64,000 bases of DNA from Lophium mytilinum (lineage: Eukaryota). This document shows positions 42,416 through 64,000 of the stretch, piece after piece. Each line of letters begins with the position of its first letter. Within the stretch, counting starts at the first letter, position 1. The position numbers and the translations under genes were made by a program. Under the pieces are notes generated by a model. The model searched no databases, had not been told where the DNA came from, and saw only the letters and a list, made by a program, of their open reading frames with translations. The DNA is taken from the NCBI GenBank assembly GCA_010093605.1, contig MU004196.1, forward strand, positions 332,606 to 396,605. Direction: 5' to 3'.

Positions 42416-44109
42416 TCAAAGTCCAACTTTCTCCCCATCAATTCCGTGATGCATGGTTTGGTTCCTGTACCTCTTGCGGCCCCTCACGAACCAATCCACC
42501 ACGATGATCAGCAGGATGATTCCGTAGCACGCCGATACGTAGTTCATATCTAATTCCAAAATTAGCGAACATCACCCTACCACAAAGCACGAAGAGAAAA
42601 CCAGCAAGGGGAGGGAGGGGGGCACTCACAATCCGCCGTCACCGGCATAACCGTCGGAAATGAATACATCACCAGCGTAAACAGCGTCCACCCCAACGTC
42701 ACCACATTACAAAGCAGCCCAAACCTCCCGAGCCAAAACGGGCCAGGTTTAATATTCGAACGCCCCCTCACCAGCAAACACGTAATCGGGATCGCGTAGG
42801 AGATGTACGGCAGCACGATGCACCCCGTCACGATACTGTTGATCGCCGCGTACGACCCTAGGTACAGCAGCCCCAAGCACGCAACGAGGAAGCTGCTGAC
42901 CATGTGCGCGTTCAGCGGCATGTCGAGCGCCGGGTGGATCTGCGCCCACAGGTGGTGGCCCGGGATGCCGCGGTCGCGGGAGAAGCTCCAGCACAGCCGC
43001 GACGCCCACGTGTGGCAGGAGATCATGCACCCGAAGCCCGTCGCGATGATGAAGGCTTCCAGCACGATCGCGCCGGCTTTGTGGCCGATGGCTTGGTAGA
43101 AGAGCTCGAGGATGGGCACGCCGGTGGTTGTGGCCGCGACGCCCGCGATGTCGGTCATGCTGAAGAGCATGCTCATGATCCAGAACCACGACGTCACGAA
43201 GCCGATGCCGATGGTGCCGAAGATGGCGATGGGGATGTTGCGTTCTGGGCGCGGCACTTCTTCCGCCATGTGGACGGCCGTGTCGAGGCAGGAGAAGCCC
43301 CAGTTGGTGTTGATGAGGCCGGTGATGAAGGCGATGCCGCCGCGGGACCAGCCCGTGTTGTTGATGAAGGTGGTGAAGACGAAGGAGGCGGTTTGGTGGG
43401 TGGGGGCTTTGGCGGGGACGACGACGAGGGTGATAAAGAAGGAAATAAGGGAGGTGTAGAGGGCGATGGTGGCGATGGTGGGGAGAGCGCGGCCGTAGCA
43501 GTTGAAGAAGAAGGCGAAGAAGTTGACGAGTTGGTAGGCCACGACGACCATCCAGGGTTCGGTGACGCTGGGGTGGAGTGTTAGGGGGTGTTTGGGGTTA
43601 GGGTAAAGGGGAACATACAGGTCTGGGTGAGAGAGCTGGTAGCAACCCACGAGCGCAAATCCGACGGTGAGGGCGACGCTGGCGCAGGCGAAGATGGAGC
43701 CCGCCCATGCGAACCAGCCTGCGGTATAGGAGGCTAGATTTGCGTACCTCTTCGGTGCCAGCTCACGTGCCCAGAATGACTGTCCGGCAGCATTGGGTAA
43801 CGCACTGACAAGCTCAGAGAGAGATCCTGCTACGCCGATGGAGATAATGAAGAGGAGGATGGTGCCGTAGATGAGGAGAACGGGTCCTCCAGAGCTGATT
43901 CCCGTGATCAAGATGCCAGCTACGGCCCACCAGGAGTTGGTAAGGGAGAAGCCGATACCAAGAACTGACCAAACGGAGAACTTCCGCGTCATATCTTGGG
44001 TATAACCCATTTCAGCCAGTTTCTTTGCGTCGCCATCGCTGTACTGGTCAAACTTCTCTGTTGAGTCCACGGTGGCTGTGTGCTCCACCTTTTCCTCGTT
44101 GACCGACAT
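42416..44109 (-). CDS. APC-family amino acid/choline permease (Hnm1/Uga4-like)
   Basis: MGYTQDMTRKFSVWSVLGIGFSLTNSW, SLSELVSALPNAAGQ, HMAEEVPRPERNIP, SRLCWSFSRDRG, GPFWLG and |MNYVSACY; many TM segments. Confidence 0.92.
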
Positions 44110-45354
44110 GATTGGAGATTGGCACGGAGTTTGCCAGTTGACTCAAGTCAGGCTCGTGATACCAGGTACGCCCAATTACGCTGGGTACGCTTGTCAGTCT
44201 GGAATAGAAGAAAGTTGTTTCGTAGATGAAGTGTGATGAAGAAAATTTGGATTTTGTAAACATGAGGTTGCTGGCTCCTGAACCCGGCCTCGCTTCCAGA
44301 AGTACATAAAGTTGGAAATGTGGATGCATTGATACCCGCGGACTCGCCTTAGCAATTGCAGCGAGTGTCCGGAAGCCATGTCAGGCGCTCGGACCATTTG
44401 TCCAGGAGCTGTGAAGGCTGATATTGAAAACAATGTTTAGAAAAGAGTGACCAAAGGAACAGATTTCGAGACGCCACGTTCTTGCAGCGTGGTAGAATGG
44501 GATTGAAAGCAGTGTAACGTGAGATTTGGCGAATGACATTGAAAGGGGCCGAAGACCATACACAAGGTCGGTGATAGAGAGTAGGCTGCTTACATGAAGT
44601 TTATCAGATCGCAAAACAGTATCACGAAGCATGCAGACGCCGAGAAATATATTTGAGCCCTTGCACGAGATGTGCCTTGCTCGTGATTGATGAAGAGAGG
44701 TGGTACAGGAGGCGGAGGAAGGTAGCTTTTGGCACTTAGGGAGTAATCACCACCTAAGTCCAGTTGACCTGTGCAGAAACGCCTATCTTCTGTGCCACAC
44801 ACACGGATCGCTCCCGCGCTGCACCTCTACAAATGTAGGCGATTGCCCAGCTCCATGAGTCGTGTACTGTAAGGATTTGCAGCCAGCCAGGTCGTTTGTG
44901 TCGCTCAAGGCACTAGACCTGAATTAGACTACAAATGCGAATGCCCTCGTACCGATAAGCTTGGCGACAACTCAACACCAAGCTTCTGTATGTCACGTCA
45001 ATCATTGGATCATTTACGAAAAGAAAATGCCCTGCAGTAAAGGCAGGGGGCCTGGAAGCATGCATCCAACAGTAGCGACCACGTATCACGCACGTATCGA
45101 GAGGTGGAGCCCCTTGATCCGAACCCTCCCCGCCTTCTCCAGGCCATGAATCCGTCGCCAGATCGCCTCAAACGGGGCATACCAACGCGTCGAGTCAGCT
45201 TTCAAGAGAAGTACCATCTTCCTTTTTACTTTCATTGATTCGAGGGTCCTTCGCGAATTATTTGAAACATGTCCCTATAAGCTTTTGCCCTTTGTCCAAC
45301 GAGTCAACCCGCTGCGTCCAGCACTATACGGGGAGATCCCGATCAGTAGTCAAT

Positions 45355-48588: not shown

Positions 48589-50131
48589 TTACCACTCCAT
48601 GCCCCCTTTCTCGCCGTCCCCTCCGACAGCGCAGGCGGTCGGCATACCTCCGCCAGCGAGATCTTCGAGTTCTTTGCAGACTACAACGCATTAGTATATC
48701 TCTTTTTCCCCTTACTGAATCGATGAATCGAGTAGGTAGATCACATACCTTGCTCCCCCTTCATAAACTCCACGCTGCGCCCCTCTCGTCTACTCCCCGG
48801 CATAATCTCCACCCCCCTCATCCTCTCCTCCCTCAAATGCTCCCTCAGCATCGGCAAGAACTCGTTTTGCTTGCTCAACGGCCCGCTCTCCACCACCACG
48901 TAGCTAGACTCCAGTCCCCGAACCCAGGCCGCGACGCCCTGCTCCAGCTGCTCGAGCTGCGCTTGGGAAGGCGCAGGGGCGAAGGAGGACGCGGCGCTGT
49001 ACACGTCGCAGCGCACCGCCGTCCTCGCCGCGCTGAGCGGGAACGCCGTGATGCATAACCACAAGCTCGAGCCTGGAAGCATCTTGAGCGTCGTGATAGG
49101 GGAGACATTCAGCGACGTAGGCGTCTCGCTCCCGCCGGCATTGGCGCCCTTGGGAGCGCTTTTCCTAGCGCTGCCGACGAGCAGACGCAGGTACGCTCGC
49201 AAGCCAGCAGCGGCCGCCGACGATGCGCTCGGCGCCTCTTGCAGCGCGAGCGTGCTGATAGGTTGTTGGGCTGCGATTGTGGGTGTTAGCAAGCGGGCCG
49301 TGATCGGTGGAGATGCATGGCGCAGCGTGGAGATCGGAGGTCAGGAAAACCCCAGCAAACAACGCCCCAGTAACCGGGATCGCGGGACTAGGAAACGGCG
49401 ACGGTTGGGAAAGCTTGTCTTGACTTGACTTGACTGGACTGGACTGGACTGGACTCGACTCGACTTACCGGCTACCTTCCAATTGAAGTCGCCCTTCAGG
49501 TCCCACCCGGTAATCCACGAACCGCGAGCGTGGATACCATGCTCTGCGGCGAACGCGACCACGGAGGCGCAGCTGGGCGGCTCGAGGTTCAGGCCGGCGT
49601 CGAGGTTGACGTGGATGAAGCCTCCCTTGTCAGTGCACGTGTGGATAGCAAAGAGGCTGTTTTGGGTCTTGTCGAAGCCATCGATGCCGTCGAATTGGGG
49701 TGCTTTCAAGAGCTTGCCCTTGGTGTCGTAGCTCCAGCCATGGTACTTGCAGCCTAGCACCAGCGAAGAGCCAGCGGTCTTCTTAGTGACTGTGTACGCG
49801 CGATGGCGGCACACATTGTGGAAAGCACGTGCGATGTTGTCTTTGCCCAATATGATGAATATTGGGAATGTAGCGAGCTCCATCGCGACGTAGTCGCCAG
49901 GCTTGGTGAAGCGGCTGCGATGCGCAACGCAAATCCATGTCTAGAAGGTTTAGTCAGGTACAAGATGGAGAAGGAGTCCAATCACAGCGGTACCTTGCTG
50001 AAGATGGCCCGTCTCTCGAGGAGGAACAGTTTGTCGTCGTCGTCGAAGACGTCGACTTCTTTGGATACCTCCAATACGTCCAGTGAATCAATGCGCTGCC
50101 TCGCGAAGACGGGTACCTCTGGCGGACTCAT
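48589..50131 (-). CDS. Rieske oxygenase alpha-like protein with intact [2Fe-2S] ligands and a degenerate catalytic domain
   Basis: LFLLERRAIFSK|TWICVAHRSRFTKPGDY..AFHNVCRHR..GCKYHGWSYD..FNWKVA|AQQPISTLAL. No ECxHCxxxH motif. Confidence 0.85.
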
Positions 50132-50774
50132 ATTGGATGGGATCGAGATGTGAGGTCGAGGAGCTTCTAGGATAAGACTAGAAAAGCCGTGGGGGGTGCC
50201 GGCGTCGTCGTATGTGAGCTATCACATTCACGTTGGGGGGAGGGGAGAGATGGAACAGCACAATGGCTGAAGCCGAGTCCTCTGACCCCATTTCAATGGC
50301 TGCGAGGGGTGCACAAGAGTGAGGTGCAGCGTGCCCAACGGACACCGCGTATGTTCTAGACTGTAGCGAGCAGGCGCTGATTGGACGGTAAGAGCGTGCT
50401 GGAGGCCGCCAGCCTGCACCGCGACGGTAACATGTTGTCACGAACAGAAACACTGGTGTTGATGAGCGCTGGCGGTAGCAGGAACAGCAAGGTTCGCGAT
50501 CCGTGATGCACCTTCGCCGTACTTCCCAATTCGGCCATAAAGTCCCGACTGTCAGTGCCTTTATTGGCTGCTAGCTGTCGGCAGATAGACGATCGGCACG
50601 GCAATGATGCATAATACGTCCGATCTCATGGGGATAGATTGCTACGCATGTCGAGTATCGAGATATGTGCTTTGAACCGAAACATCCGAGCGGGGCGGCT
50701 GCCACGACACGGACACCCACCTGCCGATCCCAGTCTGCATGGCTTTGGAAAGGGACGGCCTGCATTTCGAACCC

Positions 50775-51941
50775 TCAAGAACTCGCTGGGTCTACGAGGC
50801 CAGAGCGCGCCACGTGGTTGAGACTGGCAGCACCCTTCGCCTGCGGCCCGGGCCCCTTGTCCGTCTCATGCTGAGTGCACACTAGATCGAACACCCGCTG
50901 CTGGTAGACTTCATTGGCTAGTTAGTGCATGTGCCGACACTGTTGAGGATGCGCACTTACAGACGACGCCCGTCTCCTTGATTGGATTGAGGATCCCCTC
51001 GGCGTAGACCCCCTTTTCGAGGTTCTCTTGGGCTTTCTCGCAGAGCTCGTAGTCTTCCATAGCAACTTGGCGGACGAATTTGAAATAGTGCTCGAATTTG
51101 TCACCATCTTTCTCGTGGTAGTAGTCGAACTCCATCCTGGTGACGCCCGGCTTATCTGTAGGGCAGACTCTGAACGAGGACATTCCTCCACCATATACAT
51201 TCAAGGTGCAGTTGGGGAAGAAGTAGAGAAAGAGACCATCGTTTGGCTTCTTAGGATCAGCTATGTGCTGAGAGAAGTTCTTGTGGTTATACACCGTGTA
51301 GAACGTTGGCGGGTAATACACCGAGAACGACGGATGAGTGTATTGGCAGTGGAGACACTCTTGATACCCATCCACCCTACTGTGCGTTAGTGGATTGTTT
51401 GTTAGAATAGCAAGGGGTCTCCTTACATCGTCTTCCAGTTGAAGTTCCCCTCATACTTGATGCTGCGGCGGTATGGCAGTTTCGTAAAATCCACCCTCTT
51501 TAGCAAGCTCTCGAGGTCTGGAAAAAAGTCTTCAAACGCGGGTGCGTTGTCAGAAATCGTCGTGAATAGGAGGCCCGTCACGGTCAAGTGGCTTCTCAAT
51601 TCTTTGCCCTAGTCATAGTCAAGAACATTCCCTCTCAGAGCATATCGCGAAAGCCACTAACTTCGGCAGCTGAATAGACCTTGATATGTCGTGGGTCGTC
51701 GGAGTTTCGAGTAACGATGAGCTTGACCTGGGCCATCTCATAGTCGACCTTCTCCCCAACGACCTGGAAGCGAGTTACAGGCCCCAGAAGATACCATGCC
51801 TCGACCTAGTTAGCCCCAGAGCTCAAGCGGCGGCTGCTCCCTTCGACGGCGTACCTTCAGAAACACGGCACGACGCTCAAGCTGATACAGCGGCAGGCTA
51901 CAGTACCAGGACGCAGGGAGAGTTCTCGTGAGCGAAGACAT
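50775..51941 (-). CDS. Rieske oxygenase alpha-like protein (choline/carnitine monooxygenase-like) with catalytic Fe ligands but no [2Fe-2S] motif
   Basis: MSSLTRTLPASWYCSLPLYQLERRAVFLK|..WYLLGPV..|GKELRSHLT..FNWKTM|VDGYQECLHCQYTHP..FFPN..QVAMEDYELCEKAQENL..G.L.P..E.GV. Confidence 0.85.
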
Positions 51942-54865
51942 GGTAACATATGAAGATATTTTCAGGCGCCTAAAAGCGAGTATGCGCTCGATTTTCGAGA
52001 TTGAAGAGACAAGAGTCGCTATCGTTATGTTGATGAGACGGCCCTTGATGAGTTCCATCAGTGACGAAACCGGATGGGGATAAAACGTCCAGTAGTAGCT
52101 CCGCATTCAACGCCAGCGCTGTAAGCGTCTTACCATTGGAGTCCTCGGGAGCGCAGTAGATCGAATTGGAGACTCTTAGAGTCGGCTATGATGCTGATCG
52201 CGTCACGAAATGGTTGCCACGAGATGCCTTGTGCACCATCCTACTGCAGCTGATAGGGCTAGTGCGATTTGGCGTTGATATATTACGGCACTCGAGCTCC
52301 AGATAGATGAGTCTATTGGGCCATACCGGCTGTTCGAAATCGAGGGTTTTGCTAACCGGTACGCTAAGCGCGGGATGCCTTAGAATGGGGTGAGGTCTGG
52401 GGCTTATCGTAGAAGCTCCAGAATGCAGACTGTGGGTCCTCTCCACCATGGTTCCCACGATACCTACCATCGCAGTCGGTTCTAGGAACACAGTCGAGCC
52501 TTGCGAACGAGAGGCTTTGGATCTGCTCCGCCATACACAATTGGCTTGTCAGAAACAGCTGGAGATGCTCGGATGAGATCTGGGTTGGATGTACGATGGG
52601 CCAATGTCGCGGGGCAGAGCAGCTGTGGCTGTCAGGCGAGTGCAGTCCGCTCAGCTATAGGCCAGCTTTGGGGTCCCGAGGACGGGACTGCATCTGGTGC
52701 GTCTCAGGGAGCGAGGTGAGGTTGGTCCCCTTGGTCGACGCGGGTGTTGGGCCCTTCCTGTGTAGCCGATTACTCAGCAGCTTCCGTGTATATCTTGCCT
52801 TCTCCCGGCCTAGCAAGCTTCATCGCCTGAACAACACCACCACAGCGCCACTATTCTGTCAGTGCCACTCAGTTCAATTACAATATTCTCTTCCAGCATA
52901 CCGATTTCTCACGCCGGGCGGCAGATCCCGGACACGATGACGCCTGACGCTGCGTCTCGCTCGCTGGTTGGGTGCTCACCATGCCGTCTGGCGCCCAAAA
53001 GTGACACGAGCTGAAGAATCGCACGAGAAAAGAAAGCTCCGCACGCCCCGCACCCGCTGCTCCTTGCGTTCGTCAACAGTTACACTAGCCCGCATGTCCG
53101 CACATATATCGGGGCCTCAGGGCTCATAATGGTCCGTTTCTGGGTTCCAATTGCCCTCGCGCTGGGCCTCGTCTATGTCGATCTTTTTTCTGGCTGCAGC
53201 AGCCCGTTCTCGAAACTCATCCTAACGCTGATCCATGCCGTGCACGCAGACAGCTGCACTAACAACTTGACGATATCTGTTCCATGGTGCGCTATTCGAC
53301 AGCCCTTCTTCCGAACGAGACCCGCAGTATGTCATTGAATAGTGTTACTAAGTTAAGAATCACCGCCACACCGGGGACCTTGTCACCCCTGACTCCACGT
53401 AATCCAATAGGAACGCTTCCCATCGCCTCGTAGACGGTTCGCCGTCTTTTCAAAAAGGACTTTCGGAAACGGGACGGGCCCGTAGCTCCACGTCTAGCCT
53501 CCACCAACGTCTACCCCCGTCCAATGACGCTTCGTACCGTGCATTGATCCCGAGATCCAGCAGAGCAGCTCCCCTCATCCATAGAGTGCCAGTCCAATGG
53601 CAGTCAACCACTAGAGTAATTCATTGCCAGTATGGGATTGGCTTCGGAGAATCTCCCGTTGTCACTTTACCTCAACATTATGGCATCCGAAGACACTGTC
53701 TGTGTAAATGCCAAGCATGCAAAGGTAGGTAGCTAGTGCCCAAGTGGCGGGCACTTTCTACCATATTTCGGACTAGAGCACAATAGAGTCATAGTCAGTC
53801 GTACAGTAGATCCTTCCACCGCTAGGCGTCCCGAAATCGGAGGCCCAGGTACTTCATATGCAAGGCTGGTTGCATGATACATACATTAGTGCTCCGGGAA
53901 CCTTTACCGCACCTACTAACGGCTAATAGCGTGGAATCAATTCTCTCCTCGAGAATTCCATATCCAAGACGCGTATCCGGCGAACTGATTGGCAACCACG
54001 TGTCTGCCAAGAAGATTCGCGCCCCAAGTAACTCCTGGATCTGAAGTACCAACCCGAATTAGCCTTCCTCTCCCTGCCGACTTTCTAGCCACTAACCGAT
54101 ACCACAAGACACGGGACCAAGCCCTTCGACTACCATAGACTGCCCTCCAATGGACCTTCTCAATGCCCCCACGTCGATCATTCATGGTCGTTTTTACCTT
54201 CACAAGAAGTGCAATCCGGAGACCCACTGTTATGAAGCCCGACTACCAGGAACATCATCTCACTTCAATTTCTGCAAGCCGTATCACCATCCACCCATGC
54301 TATCACAAAGCCCCAGCGCTGTGGACTACGGTGAGAGCGGCTGCTTGTCAATCTCCCAACCCGCAATTACACGACCGACGGCTTGCTCGAGACGTGTGTG
54401 GTGATAGGTTCCACGTTGGCGTAGTTGCACAGGCACCTTGATGGTCGCAGTCTTGCCGTCAAGCAGCGCGAGATGATATTCCGATAAAGGACAGGGAACA
54501 TCCTCGCCGAGGAAGGCCAGCGCACTGTGGTAAACCTTATGATATCGTTGGGATGGAAGAAGGGACTACAACATGTCATGTGAACGTAAAATGTAGTGTT
54601 GAGGTTGGAAGCGGTCAGCTGTGCGACTGTTACAGAGCCCGAGGTGAGGCTTGTGACGCGCTTCGTGTAAGTGAGGCGCGTGCCAGATTCGATGCTCGAT
54701 GCTTGCGACGCCAACGAAAACGAGAGGGAAAAGAACGGGTGGCGGGAGAATGAGTCCTAAAAATTGGAAGAACTGCGCATTGAAGACTGTGATATGGGTA
54801 AAAATCAACTACGGCATCGCACAATCAAAGGAATTGTCGATCTTTGTCCTTCCAATACCCGATGC

Positions 54866-57115
54866 CTAAGACCACGCCCTCTCAGTCCCGACAGGCACAA
54901 TACCATACTTCTCCATCCCTTCCACCATCAACGCTTCACTCGCAACCCCTTCGTCGCAAATCTCCTCTTGCCGCATGCACAACTCAACTGCAAGATCATA
55001 AAACGCGTCTACAAGCCCCGCTTTCTCAATAGCCTCCCACCTCTCATAGCCCCTATCCCTATCCTCCTCCGGCGTCCTAAGCTGCGAGAACCCCTCCACC
55101 GTCTCCCCCTTTCCCCCACCTAGCGCACCCCCAAATACCATAACCTTGCCACCCTCTTCAAAGCTCCTCCACGGGCTTTTCCCATTCGCGAACTCCACCC
55201 AACACTTACTCATAAACTCGCTCACCCGCTGATGCTTCTCAGGCAACTGCTTCTTCAGCAGACCCCACACATACACATTATCCAGACTATGATGCGCCAG
55301 TCCCCCCCACTCATTCCGAAACGGACTCGGCACGTCGAAATGATACCCTAGCAGCCGCGGCTGCGCCCGCAGCGCCTTGAAGTTGACGAGCGTGTACAGC
55401 GCGTCCGTCGTCATGCGCTCCGTGGCCCAAAACAGGTCGTTCTGGCTCATATCGTCCCGTAACCCATACAGCTCGATGATAGTCTGTGCTGCCGTTGCAG
55501 GGTACACGGCTTTCGAGTACCGTCGGTGCGGGCGCGAGGGGTTGAGCACATGGCGGATTTTGGAAAGTAGGGCGCGGGGTGGGAGGGAGCGGAAGGCTTT
55601 GTTCCAGATTACGCACTCGTTGCGCACGTCGCCGAGCATGACGGCTTCGCACCACGAGGGGAGTTTGAAGTCGGCATACTGGGAGTACGTGGGCATTGGG
55701 CCGTTGATGAGCACGCCGTCGTCGCAGGGGGAGAGGGTGATGACGGGGGTGACGAGGACGGGGACCATGGCGGCGGTGAGTTCTTTCTCTGGCGTTTCGA
55801 TGAGGCGTTGAAGGCGTTCGCGCGGGGAGAGGGAAGACGGGATTGAGAGGTGGGTGAGGGTTTTGTTGTAGATGGATTGGTACTGCGAGGGGGTGAGGAC
55901 GCCGCAGAGGGGGAGCAGGCCTGACTGGATTATGGTGCGGGAGAAGAGCTTCTCGCCGCGCAGGAGGTGGATATTCGCCGATACTAGCAGTGGCGTTAGC
56001 CTCGTCTTCCTATGTCTATTCTAGAGACTGAGAAAGTGAAAGTCGAGAAGTGAGTTTGGGATAGGGAACATGGCATACCTCCGCCAGCCGACTGCCCGAA
56101 TAAAGTCGCGCGTGCGGGATCTCCCCCGAATCCTGAGATGAACCGCTGCACCCACCGCAACGCCTCCACCTGGTCCCAGATCCCGTAGTTGCCGACCCCG
56201 TCCTCTCCGTGCTCTTTATTATACTCTTTGATTTCCTCGCTGGCTAGAAATCCAAACAGCCCTAACCTGAAATTGATAGATATGATGATTGTAGGCATTT
56301 CGAGGTTCGCGGATATCTCAGAGAGCACGCGGCCGTCGTAGATCGCTGCACCGCCCGCGGCGTAGACGAAGGCGCCGCCGTGGAGGAAGAGCATTACGGG
56401 GTACTTTTGAGGGGCGGAGGTGGGAGTAGGTGGAGAAGGGACGGAGATGTTCAGGGAAAGGCAGTCAGTGGAAGAGGTGGTGGGGGTGTCGGAGAGCCAG
56501 GGGCGGGATGGGTTGGGAATGGGGTAGAAGTCGCGGGGGGGTTGGGAGGGGAAGGGGCTTAGTTTTGTTAGTGGGAGTAGATGGTTGGAGGCGTTAAGAT
56601 GGGTAGGGACGAATGTGTATAGAAGTAAAATAAAGTAAGTAAATTAAAGTGAGTAAGTTAAAGTGAGTGAGTTGAAGTGAGTGAGTTGAAGTGAGTAAGT
56701 TGAAGTGAGTGAGTTGAAGTGAGTGAGTTGAAGTGAGTGAGTTGAAGTGAGTGAGTTAAAGTGAGTGAGTTGAAGTGAGTGAGTTGAAGTGAGTGAGTTA
56801 AAGTGCGAACTAAGGAGTATGAAATGAGATGTGTGAATTAAGGCGTGCGGAGGGGCAGGAGGCGGTTCGTAAGGCTTTGAGCGATGAGAGATATGTTATG
56901 AGAACAACTCACCCGACCTTGGTCCCATCCCATTTCTTCTCTGGCCATGGTACTACTGCTGGCTGAGGTCGTCGAAAGCGCCCTGGGACTGTAGCATAGG
57001 GGATGCCCATGTACTGGGTGCTCTTGCCATCGAAGCAGAGGCCGGTGATCTCGCCTAGCTCAGGGATATCGATAGACACTTTTGTGACTACTTTTACGTC
57101 TTCTGCGGATGTCAT
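54866..57115 (-). CDS. Type-B carboxylesterase (cholinesterase/pNB-esterase fold)
   Basis: YMGIPYA..RFRRP, DCLSLNISVP, FLHGGAF, NFRLGLFGF, GNYGIWDQVEALRWVQRFISGFGGDP, GQSAG (catalytic Ser) and AHHSLD (His). Confidence 0.93.
56645..56805. repeat. 14-bp minisatellite (AAGTGAGTGAGTTG) in esterase intron 1
   Basis: About 11 near-identical units. Confidence 0.95.
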
Positions 57116-58012: not shown

Positions 58013-60225
58013 ATGCAGTCACAGGAACGGGCTCCGATGAGGCGGGCGAAGAAGTCTAGGAATGGCTGTGCTAGGTGCAAAGGCCAGCGTGTGAGTCGGA
58101 GAACCGCCCCGACGAATTGCGACAGGAAGCTGACTTTTCATAGCTCAAGTGCGACGAAGCGAAGCCTGCCTGCGGACGATGTGTGCGTGTTGGAGTGCAA
58201 TGCCCAGGATATGTGCAAAACCTGAAATGGTCTACCAAATATGAGGTCTTCAACTCGACTACCGGAGACGAGGCGGTCAAGAACGGACAAGACGGCGTCG
58301 AGGGCAACCGGCCTAAGCCACGGCTGGAGGAGCTGGATACACCTGTACACGATGGAGGGCTGGACCTGGAATCGGGACAAACCCATACGTTTGACGGCGC
58401 ATCCCCAGACGACGGAGATATACCGCTGGAGATGGGGCTGGGCATGGGCGTGCTGGACTTCAACTTCAATCGAATTTTCCCGGAGATGGACGACGAGTCG
58501 TTGGGATATAACGGATCGCTGAACTTTGATTTCGAACAGAGTATGATAGCATCATATTCCGCGCCCACACTCGCAACAGGTGCGAGGGTTTCACCTGCAG
58601 CCAATACGCATACAAAAAATCAAACACCAGATTCAAAGAGCACTACCGTAACCAAACCTCAAAAACGCCCAAAGGGACCGCCTTCTCCACCCTCCATATT
58701 CAATCTTCGCCAATCCGTCAAGATCCCCGTGGGCGCGGCTCTCAATGATGTTTCTTCCATCCTGACCGAGTTCTACTTCAAAGAAACCGCTCAAGTCTTT
58801 TCTTGCTACGATAGTCCCATGAACCCATTTCGCAGCACTGTATCTCAGCTCTGGGGGAACTCAAAAGTCATATACTGCACCCTTCAAAGTATGGCAGCTG
58901 CCAGTCTTCTGGACAATTTTCCACATCTTGCACCAGTTGGCCGTCAACTCCGCGCTGAAGCCATGGCAGAACTTGATAAGACCCAAGACCAATTCGATCA
59001 CAGATCGCTTCTCGCACTTTTGATGCTTGGTGGCACATCCTCGTGGCATGACCCCAACGATCTCGGGCTGCCCTTCTTCAACCTCGCGCGCAAGCGCCTA
59101 GACTCTATGGCTGCCTCCGGGAAAATGCCAAAAGACGGGAATAACTACCGCTTCTTCGAAGAGGCCTTGATATATTGGGAGATGCTGTTATCTTATGTCG
59201 CAGACAACAACAGCCTGGACCCCATGCGTGAACCTCTCGAACCAAGCCCTTTCCAACCTTCACGTCAAGTCCCGCATCCCTGGACCGGCGTTGCCCGTGA
59301 CTGTCAGTACGTGGTGCAAGAAGTCGGGCGTGTCATTCGGCAACAGCGGAAACTCGCACACTCGCGGTCTTTCACTACAGAAGCCCACATCTTGAAGCTA
59401 CAGAAAGCTATGGCGCGTGCAAGCGAGCTTGAGCTTCAACTGCTAGAATTCGGCTACCCAACCGAGCATGAAGTCGTGAGTCCTGAAGACCGCGAGACGC
59501 CGGTATGGCATCTTCTCAATCTCGCCGAGGTATATAGGAGAACAGGATTGGTGCAAATCTACCGCGTCTTCCCCGATCTTCTGATGCGCAGATTGCCCAC
59601 ATTGTCACCTCGAGACGAATTTGACCCCTTCTCACCCCCCTCATCAACCGACTTCTCCGAGAAAGACCAAGCCGATGAAGATAGAGAGAGGCGGAACGAG
59701 TGGCTCACCGTCTTTGCACTGGAAACCCTAGCTTTACTGAAGACAATACCACTGGAATCTGGGACACGGGATTTCCAGCCTTTCTTACTGGTCGCGAGCT
59801 GCAGCGAGCTCAGATTCGAACCAGACCCCTTGCCGTCAACACCCATCGTCGATCCGGCTGCAGCGTTCGCGGCACAGTTTTCGGCACGATCGAGCAACGG
59901 CAGAATCTTGACCCCCCTAGCCGCCCACCCTAATGCCCCTAGCCACATCGGTGGGAACGGGAGTGGGGCCTCAGCTTACAACGGTGCCGACGTCCCGCTT
60001 TCCCTTCGCGCGGTCGAGGTTTCTCGTGCTCGCCAGCTTATCGAGGGCAGACTTACGAGTTTCCTGCATATCCTCCCGCCGAAGCCTATGCACGTGTGTC
60101 TTGATATAGTGAGGGCGACGTGGAGGAGGCTAGACGAGACGAAGAATCTCAAGGGAAGTGAGGCGGTGGATGTATATTGGATGGACGTCATGATTGAGAA
60201 CGGGTGGGAAACAACGATGGGGTGA
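58013..60225 (+). CDS. Zn(II)2Cys6 transcription factor with a fungal-specific TF (type 2) domain
   Basis: KSRNGCARCKGQR|LKCDEAKPACGRCVRVGVQCPGY; later YDSPMNPFR, ALIYWEML, PHPWTGV and VYWMDVMIENGWETTMG. Confidence 0.93.
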
Positions 60226-61892: not shown

Positions 61893-62656
61893 CTAATTCG
61901 TAATGACCGGAGCAGTATTGTCCCACTTGCCGCTCTCCGCCGCACCAACCAGCCACTTCGCAACACTCCCCCGCGTGATGGCAGCCATCATCCCCACTCC
62001 CTTGCCCGCATTCGGCCACTCTTTCACGTCTTTCGCCTCTCCCTCTTCAAGACGCGCCGGACGCACCATCACGTATGTTACGCCGCTGGCTCGGACCTCC
62101 TGGTCGACAAGATTATGGTCGTCGTACTGGTAGATCATGTTGCTCTTCTTCATGAGCAGGCGCATGATGCAGTTCATGTTGGGCCAGGAGTCGCCTACGC
62201 CTTGCGCCTGCATGATGACTACCTTCGCCACACCGAATTCCTTCATGGCGGCCACGACGTTGGCGTTCGAGTCGGCCATGAGGCGCGGTGGGGAGATGTT
62301 GGCGGCGAAGGGGCTGTCGGCTGCGCGGGGCGCGGAGAGGGTTACGAGGACGACGGAGGGGTTTGAAGCTTCGAAGGCGGCGCGGACGTCTTCTTTCTTC
62401 ATGGGAGTGCCTGTGGTATTGTTAGTGAGGGTTGGGTGTTTGTTGTGTGCGAGGAATGCGTACCAGCTACGACCTTGAGGCCGGGCTTCGCTTCCACCGA
62501 GGAGGGAGTCCTGGCTAGAGTAGTGACTTGATGGCCTTTTCTACGTTAGTGAGGGCTTTCTGAGTGTACATGGGCGATACTCATACCTCGCTGGAGAAGT
62601 TCGTCGATAACGAGCTTGCCAGTGCGGCCGCTGCCTCCAATGACGAGAACCTTCAT
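61893..62656 (-). CDS. NAD(P)H-binding atypical SDR (flavin reductase/BLVRB-like)
   Basis: MKVLVIGGSGRTGKLVIDELLQR|GHQVTTLAR..|GTPMKKEDV..YVMVRPARL..ITRGSVAKWLV. Confidence 0.88.
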
Positions 62657-62834: not shown

Positions 62835-63044
62835 ACAACATTCACGTGCTTGGACAGAGCTCCTTGACTGCAGTACATATTTCTCGCCCTCCCAACGTCC
62901 TGAAATACTCATCCTCTCCATCAACCTCTCTATCAACCTCTCTAACTCACTCACGGTTCTACCCAACCTCTCAAATTCGATCAACTCCACCTCAAGCTCA
63001 ATCAACCCCACCTCAATCTCTGCCTGATACGTACGTCAAACATT

Positions 63045-64000
63045 ATGCTGTCTGCTCCTCCAAGCCGTGTGGCCATCATCGGCGCTGGCCTGTCGGGCCT
63101 CACTCTTGCGATTGCTCTTCATCGTCAGGGCATTGCCTGCCACCTCTATGAGCTCCGCGACCCTACGACCTCAACCTCAGGTGCCCTGATGCTCTCTCCC
63201 AACGCTTTGCGCATTCTCGACACCCTTGGCCTCTACAAGCAACTCAGTTCTCAAGGTTACAACTTCGAGACCATTGCGTTCAAGAATAGCGAGGAGGTCA
63301 CCACAGACCGATACTATCTCGGAAATGAGAAACTCTACCAGTATAAGGCACTCCGCGTGTACCGCCAAGTCCTGTTGACTGAGCTCCGGGCCATGGTCGA
63401 CCAACTTCACATTCCAGTCACTTACGGCTTGAAATTCAGCCACATCATCTCCGAGGACGATAACGGCGTCTCGTTCGCTTTCGTCGATGGATCTCGCGCT
63501 TCCGCCGACATCCTCGTTGGGGCCGATGGTATCCATTCCACAGTTAGAAAGTACGTGGCTCCAGGCGTAGAACCAAAGTACAGCGGCCAGGTGGCTATCA
63601 CTTGTGCTATTCAGAAGTCAAAGATCATCCCTGAGGGAGTCGACTACGACATGCCCGTCGCTATCCACGGCAAGCACGGCGCCTTCGTCATGGCCCCTCA
63701 GGATATCGATGGGTCCGAAGTGCTCGCTGGTACGCAGCGTGCCTGGCCCGAACAGGACAGGGCTGGCTGGGATGCTCTTCTAGCCGACAAAGAGAAATTG
63801 CTAGCTCTCTTCCGTACGAATATCGAAGACTGGCCTGCGACCGCGCAGACGGCCCTCAACAACGTTCCAGAGAACACATTGTCAATCTGGCCTTACTACG
63901 TTGTGCCTAAGCTCGAGCGTTGGTATTCCCCAGGAAAGCGGGTCATAATTCTCGGGGACGCGGCGCATGCCATCCCTCCGACAGCTGGACAAGGCGCCTC
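63045..64000 (+). CDS. FAD-dependent monooxygenase (salicylate hydroxylase-like), truncated by the window end
   Basis: MLSAPPSRVAIIGAGLSGLTLA (GxGxxG), LVGADGIHSTVR (DG motif) and ILGDAAHAIPPTAGQGA (GD motif). Missing from the ORF track, presumably because no stop is reached in the window. Confidence 0.93.
   Translation, partial: MLSAPPSRVAIIGAGLSGLTLAIALHRQGIACHLYELRDPTTSTSGALMLSPNALRILDTLGLYKQLSSQGYNFETIAFKNSEEVTTDRYYLGNEKLYQYKALRVYRQVLLTELRAMVDQLHIPVTYGLKFSHIISEDDNGVSFAFVDGSRASADILVGADGIHSTVRKYVAPGVEPKYSGQVAITCAIQKSKIIPEGVDYDMPVAIHGKHGAFVMAPQDIDGSEVLAGTQRAWPEQDRAGWDALLADKEKLLALFRTNIEDWPATAQTALNNVPENTLSIWPYYVVPKLERWYSPGKRVIILGDAAHAIPPTAGQGA

Follow-up and report, generated by a model that had tools for sequence, protein, structure and literature searches.

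Two adjacent genes of Lophium mytilinum with complementary metal sites of a Rieske oxygenase

Rieske oxygenases are homo-oligomers in which both metal centres are present in every chain, and in the ordinary head-to-tail alpha3 enzymes electrons pass between subunits. Exceptions to the rule of both centres per chain were met only twice in the literature searched, namely in the algal chlorophyllide a oxygenase (CAO) and in the bacterial NdmCDE. In Micromonas and other Mamiellophyceae, the cluster and the iron motif of CAO are located on separate genes (MpCAO1 and MpCAO2) and both products are required, according to the accessible part of a preprint (bioRxiv 10.1101/2025.02.10.637544, citing Kunugi et al. 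2013). In the N7-demethylase NdmCDE of Pseudomonas putida CBB5, NdmC is described as having no Rieske cluster, which is supplied by the NdmD polypeptide (available sections of PMC4408171). A fungal enzyme, the 'choline monooxygenase' CMO1 of Scheffersomyces stipitis, is reported to be required when choline is the nitrogen source for growth, with trimethylamine as its presumed product (available sections of PMC5816127). Here we describe two adjacent genes, A and B, in a stretch of 64,000 nucleotides of the fungus Lophium mytilinum (assembly GCA_010093605.1, contig MU004196.1, positions 332,606 to 396,605 of the forward strand), hereafter called the window. Protein A has the Rieske cluster site and no iron site, and protein B has the iron site and no cluster site; neither A nor B alone is a complete Rieske non-heme iron oxygenase alpha subunit. 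No description of such a complementary pair in fungi was found in the literature searched, which included a 2025 Rieske oxygenase review and did not cover subscription journals.

Both genes are read from the minus strand, on which B precedes A (Table 1). The exon models were obtained by our own reading of this strand and translation of the exons, and they agree letter for letter with database proteins of Lophium mytilinum, P0126 for A and P0006 for B. In the case of B, a 1942-nt contig of public run X1, presumed to be RNA, skips precisely all four predicted introns, each with GT..AG ends, and includes the stop codon. A is covered in the same run only by three short pieces within predicted exons, and its introns are supported by our reading and by the database protein. 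No contig bridging B and A was present in run X1, in which uncovered parts are uninformative. The first intron lies at the identical place and phase in A and B, after ERRA(I/V)F(S/L)K, and the introns following FNWK are 2 nt apart and not identical in position. Two claims that an earlier note had made from the DNA letters hold: both spliced frames are intact, and the N-terminal ERRA(I/V)F motif is shared together with its intron. The contig of B continues at least 766 nt 5' of the conserved start, comprising 359 nt to 52300 (51942-52300) and 407 more contig letters, and an in-frame upstream open reading frame (ORF) with two ATGs lies at 51810-52106. Either a long leader containing upstream ORFs or a neighbouring transcript merged into the contig may account for this extended 5' part.

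Protein A matches only one Pfam family, PF00355 (Rieske), with E 7e-16. Its cluster ligands, CRH...CKYH, are kept in all orthologues aligned, and the Rieske motif is present in 108/108 further relatives of the Rieske exon. The sequence following FNWK reads VAAQQPISTLALQ, in which ExxHxxxxH is absent. Pfam gave no PF00848 match in A and no family at all on exon 3, the C-terminal exon. A is without the 2-His-1-carboxylate site, none of the 108 further matches carries the iron motif after its own NWK, and the bridging carboxylate equivalent to E205 of the carnitine monooxygenase CntA is also absent. A hidden exon restoring the iron site was considered and rejected, as translation of the 198-nt intron 2 in three frames gives no ExxHxxxxH. 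The place of this intron recurs in relatives (L045, L046 and L011), and the A gene of the L065 type has no intron there, reads straight through and likewise misses the motif. Intron 2 of Lophium contains a pentanucleotide repeat of CTTGA at 49414-49466 of the window (10.6 copies, 91% matches). The C-terminal half of A is poorly conserved yet is an open reading frame in all 88 aligned orthologues. A hydrophobic stretch resembling a membrane anchor precedes ERRAIF in 70 of these 88 (P0147-P0233); it is absent from A of Lophium and 17 others, and B has no such stretch.

Protein B matches PF00848 only. The Rieske ligands CxH...CxxH are lacking in it, as in all of the 103 short B models described below. 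Alignment with the stachydrine demethylase Stc2 places B 8-64 on chain 21-77 and B 84-158 on chain 143-217, from which about 46 residues are gone and the base of the Rieske domain is kept. An exon hidden in B that would restore the Rieske loops is rejected by the spliced contig of run X1. The iron site is well preserved: E142, C143, H145, C146, H150, E243 and D244 are invariant, and Y140 is conserved in at least 90%, among 77 aligned B orthologues. The best 120 relatives of the catalytic exon of B comprise 103 short models, of which 98 have the iron motif after NWK and the other five are partial, and 17 long models that continue from B into A. Between classes of fungi, this exon is 77-91% identical. 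Judged from source names, the orthologues come from four classes of Pezizomycotina (Dothideomycetes, Eurotiomycetes, Leotiomycetes and Sordariomycetes), and the complementary pattern of sites was seen in every orthologue examined across them. The central claim of the earlier note, complementary loss of metal sites in adjacent genes, is confirmed by the translations, by Pfam, by the 103 short B models and by the 108 A matches. Its refutation by a missed exon fails, since neither the intron 2 frames of A nor the spliced contig of B contains the missing site.

Next to the sites themselves, predicted structures bear on what each protein has kept. AlphaFold (AF2) models made from the orthologue alignments have a predicted local distance difference test (pLDDT) score of 81.4 for A and 81.9 for B. 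Residues 24-351 of the A model align to whole chains of CntA, Stc2 and 3n0q with Z 25-26 over about 290 residues, and residues 3-285 of the B model align to CntA with Z 27.4 and a root-mean-square deviation of 2.5 over 274 residues. In these models, A and B each keep the full two-domain fold of an alpha subunit, in which one site is live and the other dead. The closest solved relatives of both, in sequence as in fold, are CntA (PDB 6Y8J) and Stc2 (3VCA), and the Rieske domain of A matches CntA/Stc2-type enzymes with E 2.4e-28. The motif Y140-x-E142-C143-x-H145-C146-x3-H150 of B aligns to Y203-x-E205-C206-x-H208-C209-x3-H213 of CntA. In CntA, Y203 is described as making a pi-cation contact to the ammonium group and E205 as the bridging Glu for inter-subunit electron transfer, which serves solely the transfer from the Rieske cluster of the neighbour subunit (accessible part of PMC7948474). 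A Cys pair around the first iron His is given as a hallmark of Group V (accessible part of PMC10952381), and B has both the invariant C143/C146 pair and Y140 two residues before the bridging Glu. As the earlier note had proposed a choline/carnitine-monooxygenase-like family, it is worth stating that CntA and Stc2 are the best matches in sequence and fold alike, and that sequence and models together support placing A and B among the choline/carnitine-type (Group V, quaternary-ammonium) Rieske oxygenases. The substrate of the pair is probably a quaternary amine.

Another asymmetry is seen at the C-terminus. A C-terminal [LIM]-[DES]-[WF] tripeptide is reported to mark the clients of the cytosolic Fe-S assembly targeting complex, fungal 'choline monooxygenases' included (accessible part of bioRxiv 10.1101/2023.05.19.541488). 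A of Lophium ends in a fitting tripeptide. Among the 88 A orthologues, 75 end in W and 41 fit the strict pattern; among the 103 B models, W or F is the last residue in two and the strict pattern occurs in none. Thus, the predicted Fe-S maturation signal sits on A, the partner that needs a cluster, and not on B.

The two genes are also kept side by side in other fungi. Consecutive locus tags for A and B are found in Neocucurbitaria, Polytolypa, Rasamsonia, Aspergillus niger and Penicillium malachiteum, and in many further species A and B are on equally long contigs. Metagenome contigs were scanned with the B alignment, which gave 79 loci in 59 clusters at 97% identity, 35 of them informative and 24 uninformative because of too short a flank. 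In 31 of the 35 informative clusters, B has a neighbouring A gene with intact Rieske ligands, which lies downstream on the same strand (tandem) in 19 and upstream on the opposite strand (divergent) in 12. Linkage, which the earlier note had proposed as a check, is therefore borne out by these clusters and by the five species with consecutive tags. There are also two cases of joint loss. In L078/79, B is a fragment with a stop codon and A has mutated ligands and a stop codon, so that both are decayed; in L054, compared with the 96%-identical L044, one deletion of 1.75 kb takes the 5' parts of both genes. Other neighbours vary from locus to locus across the 14 loci scanned.

Selection on the dead catalytic domain of A was estimated as the ratio of nonsynonymous to synonymous substitution rates (dN/dS) in two hand-delimited comparisons, since automatically cut C-terminal segments were mostly saturated or unusable. 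In the pair L065/L010, at dS of about 0.7-1.4, dN/dS is 0.029 in the Rieske domain of A (156 codons) and 0.100 in the dead domain (148 codons). In the close triad L045/L046/L011, it is 0.07-0.16 in the Rieske domain and 0.38-0.70 in the dead domain, the latter coming from 6-12 amino-acid differences. The dead domain is thus relaxed yet clearly constrained, under purifying selection, and neither A nor B is decaying. A ratio near 1, which the earlier note had named as a sign of decay, is contradicted by the value of the dead domain in L065/L010.

From these results, we think it likely that A and B together make up one Group V Rieske non-heme iron oxygenase of the quaternary-ammonium type, each gene encoding one half of it. 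It is the best reading because the complementary loss is old, both genes are maintained and linked, the dead domain is under purifying selection, and the family is that of Group V. In this joint enzyme, A would be the electron-entry subunit. Its Rieske [2Fe-2S] cluster would be acquired in the cytosol by way of the C-terminal Trp signal and would be reduced by a reductase, and its catalytic domain would serve as a metal-free scaffold. B would be the catalytic subunit, having a 2-His-1-Asp iron, the bridging Glu, the CxxC pair and the pi-cation Tyr, and a Rieske domain reduced to a clusterless stump. Electrons would pass between subunits from the cluster of A through E142 of B to the iron of B, where a quaternary-amine-like substrate would be oxidised. 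The strongest sequence argument for B being fed by a cluster in trans is that the invariant bridging Glu is kept in a protein without its own Rieske cluster. As to physical assembly, the dead domain of A and the stump of B would preserve the contacts between subunits. As to stoichiometry, a three-membered head-to-tail ring of A and B would offer at most one productive A-to-B contact.

Several observations weigh against such a joint enzyme. Because A and B cannot alternate in a head-to-tail trimer, it is hard to see which geometry a heteromer would have. The dead domain of A evolves fast, as seen in the orthologue alignments. No reductase gene was found beside the pair, either in the window or in the 14 scanned loci. 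Adjacency is not universal either: in four of the 35 informative clusters, with both flanks longer than 3 kb, there is no intact A within 3 kb. The decayed L078/79 is the fourth of these clusters. The other three (L071 and L074-76, which are one lineage, and the yeast-like, intronless L067) each contain a B-type gene that looks intact and lack A over a distance of 6 kb. There, B might use another Rieske donor.

Alternatively, A could be a free Rieske carrier, membrane-anchored in many species, which docks transiently on a homo-oligomer of B in the manner in which NdmD provides an extra Rieske domain for NdmC. An alternating trimer is indeed geometrically impossible, the NdmCDE precedent exists (as far as PMC4408171 is accessible), and the weak conservation of the C-terminal half of A would fit a carrier, as would the hydrophobic N-terminal stretch, common in A orthologues and found in none of B. 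However, A has a complete alpha-subunit fold under purifying selection, which would be superfluous for a mere carrier, and the Rieske stump of B is well conserved and confidently modelled, as expected if ring contacts persist. We regard a free carrier as unlikely.

It may also be asked whether A and B work together at all. B could be fed by an unrelated donor and A could be a Rieske protein with another role, their adjacency reflecting shared regulation. The three informative clusters with an intact B-type gene and no nearby A, the budding-yeast B-type genes without an adjacent A (L067), and the other Rieske-less relatives scattered through fungi would all be compatible with this. Nevertheless, no function is known for the invariant bridging Glu of B unless a partner supplies the Rieske cluster, the genes have stayed linked in two different arrangements although their other neighbours vary, and A and B have been lost together twice. 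Moreover, Rieske-less forms in Priceomyces, Ascoidea, Gonapodya and Hyaloraphidium are also accompanied by a Rieske-bearing paralogue. Independence of the two genes is, in our judgement, improbable.

Finally, it is hardly credible, and largely refuted, that one or both genes are decaying remnants or that a single fused gene has been wrongly split: the low conservation and missing Pfam match of the catalytic half of A and the 17 read-through models could suggest it, but frames are open in 88/88 aligned A orthologues, the dead domain has a dN/dS of 0.10 in L065/L010, the terminal W is kept in 75 of the 88, the cDNA-like contig of B has a stop codon and four correct splices, 103 of the best 120 B models are separate from A, and fusion is impossible in the 12 clusters with the genes head to head.

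With regard to origin, the earlier note went further and inferred duplication followed by subfunctionalisation, which could not be shown. BLASTP of A against B of Lophium aligns only 47 N-terminal residues with confidence, at 34% identity. Two quick maximum-likelihood trees (IQ-TREE, 52 rows each) were made. Fungal sequences form one clade, in which the A clade and the B clade are separate and not placed as sisters. The B clade (support 100) takes in proteins of the budding yeasts Priceomyces and Ascoidea, the A clade (support 100) stands among canonical two-site fungal enzymes, and the CMO1 clade of yeasts (Saccharomycotina; support 98) excludes both. In these trees, A and B appear as old, deeply diverged clades. 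A clade joining A and B is not rejected by the approximately unbiased (AU) test (p 0.456), and a single old duplication giving A and B is possible. A tandem duplication cannot be argued from the present tandem order, because the genes are head to head in other lineages.

Loss of one site is not confined to this pair. Rieske-less relatives are scattered among two-site enzymes in Gonapodya, Hyaloraphidium, Rhodosporidiobolus, Trichomonascus, Fusarium equiseti, Didymella and Clonostachys; such family members include P0281, P0285, P0311, P0313, P0333, P0290, P0353 and P0255, the last from Trichomonascus. Cluster loss seems recurrent because these forms are scattered among two-site enzymes in the tree. 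The opposite type, with a Rieske site and no iron site, occurs inside the yeast CMO1 clade (P0531 of Ascoidea, P0310 and P0423), and the Rieske-less P0255 of Trichomonascus is also inside it. P0310 and P0255 were considered as a young, independent pair; both are in the CMO1 clade, and the candidate was rejected since a common organism could not be shown. In all named genomes that could be checked (Priceomyces, Ascoidea, Gonapodya and Hyaloraphidium), a Rieske-bearing paralogue is present alongside the Rieske-less one.

A tentative scenario, which we hold to be possible and no better than that, is that a ratchet has run more than once in fungi and that the pair marks its endpoint. The Rieske-less B clade would be older than the split of budding yeasts and filamentous ascomycetes and would at first have been fed by a complete paralogue in mixed oligomers. 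The donor would then have lost its iron site independently, in Pezizomycotina (A clade) and in the yeast CMO1 clade (Ascoidea P0531; P0310 and P0423), with further Rieske-less forms in chytrids, Rhodosporidiobolus, Trichomonascus, Fusarium and Didymella. The outcome would be an asymmetric, obligate hetero-oligomer whose rings each have one active site; it would be near-universal and very strongly conserved in Aspergillus, Penicillium, Histoplasma, Blastomyces and many plant-associated moulds.

The surroundings of the pair add little to its function. No conserved third gene, including a GST-like one, was found beside it in the window or in the 14 scanned loci, and the flanking genes in Lophium have no demonstrated link to it (Table 1). 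An amino-acid permease gene is near the pair in the window (42577-44142, minus strand) and in two of the 14 loci (L040:3214-5022 and L051:1020-2339). This permease may be the transporter for the substrate of the pair, which would be a weak hint of a quaternary-ammonium compound. Among models of Aspergillus niger, P0144 and P0145 have A fused to an Mpv17/PMP22 neighbour (PF04117), and several B-A fusion models of the A. niger group skip the exon carrying the iron motif. Both kinds of model look like annotation errors.

Table 1. Positions, in the window, of the gene pair, its diagnostic sites and the flanking genes
Feature	Position	Strand	Description
Gene A	50131-48589	minus	407 aa; 4 exons: 50131-49994, 49940-49469, 49270-48749, 48680-48589; predicted Rieske-cluster subunit with dead catalytic domain
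Rieske [2Fe-2S] ligand codons of A	49740..49811	minus	C90, H92 ... C110, H113 (CRH...CKYH); invariant in 88 orthologues
A intron 2	49271..49468	minus	198 nt, directly after FNWKVA; (CTTGA)n repeat; no hidden iron-site exon
A exon 3, pseudo-catalytic domain	48749..49270	minus	begins AQQPISTLALQ; without 2-His-1-carboxylate site; still folded in the predicted model
C-terminal tripeptide of A	48592..48600	minus	M-E-W; fits [LIM]-[DES]-[WF], signal for the cytosolic Fe-S assembly targeting complex
Gene B	51941-50775	minus	318 aa; 5 exons: 51941-51855, 51799-51662, 51608-51427, 51376-50961, 50908-50775; predicted catalytic subunit with vestigial Rieske domain
Deletion site of B	51560..51700	minus	about 46 residues of two cluster-binding loops missing, around residues 64-84, across B intron 2; from Stc2 alignment offsets
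Iron motif of B (ECLHCQYTH)	51334..51366	minus	Y140-Q-E142-C143-L-H145-C146-Q-Y-T-H150; pi-cation Tyr, bridging Glu, CxxC pair, two His iron ligands
E243-D244 of B (QVAMED)	51052..51057	minus	D244 is the carboxylate iron ligand; aligns with ED of CntA and Stc2
Cytochrome P450	45118-46909	plus	flanking gene; no link to the pair shown
Carboxylesterase	54866-56643	minus	flanking gene; no link to the pair shown
Zn2Cys6 transcription factor	58144-60225	plus	flanking gene; no link to the pair shown
NAD(P)-binding protein	61893-62540	minus	flanking gene; no link to the pair shown
FAD monooxygenase	62946-63998	plus	flanking gene; no link to the pair shown

If A and B indeed form one enzyme, the pair would be the third exception to one-chain Rieske oxygenases, and a very widespread one in filamentous ascomycetes, including genera of medical and industrial importance. 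It would allow the tolerance of intersubunit electron transfer towards asymmetry to be studied in a natural system, and it would show how pseudo-enzyme domains can be retained as scaffolds and how the cytosolic Fe-S machinery is directed to one partner only. It would also flag a strongly conserved fungal enzyme, with a quaternary amine as the probable substrate, and explain the wrong fusion or misnaming of A and B genes in many genome annotations.

Compared with the known systems, the pair resembles CntA and Stc2 in having the Y-x-E-C-x-H-C-x3-H motif and the ED ligand region in B and the Rieske domain in A. In CntA and Stc2, however, both metal sites are in one chain of an alpha3 homotrimer, whereas each of the fungal chains has one live and one dead site. 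The yeast CMO1 belongs to the same fungal family, and is of the cytosolic type with a C-terminal Trp signal in the accessible part of bioRxiv 10.1101/2023.05.19.541488, but CMO1-type proteins have both sites, and the A and B clades are outside the CMO1 clade. With NdmCDE, as far as it is described in the sections available, the pair shares a clusterless catalytic subunit that would receive its cluster from another polypeptide. In that system, the Rieske domain forms part of one polypeptide with the reductase NdmD, and a GST-like protein, NdmE, is also required, whereas the putative fungal donor is a full-length oxygenase paralogue. The separation of cluster and iron motifs on two genes is reported in the same manner for CAO of Micromonas. 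That enzyme is of another Rieske family, the plastid CAO of green algae, whereas both fungal proteins keep a predicted two-domain fold and their genes are chromosomally linked.

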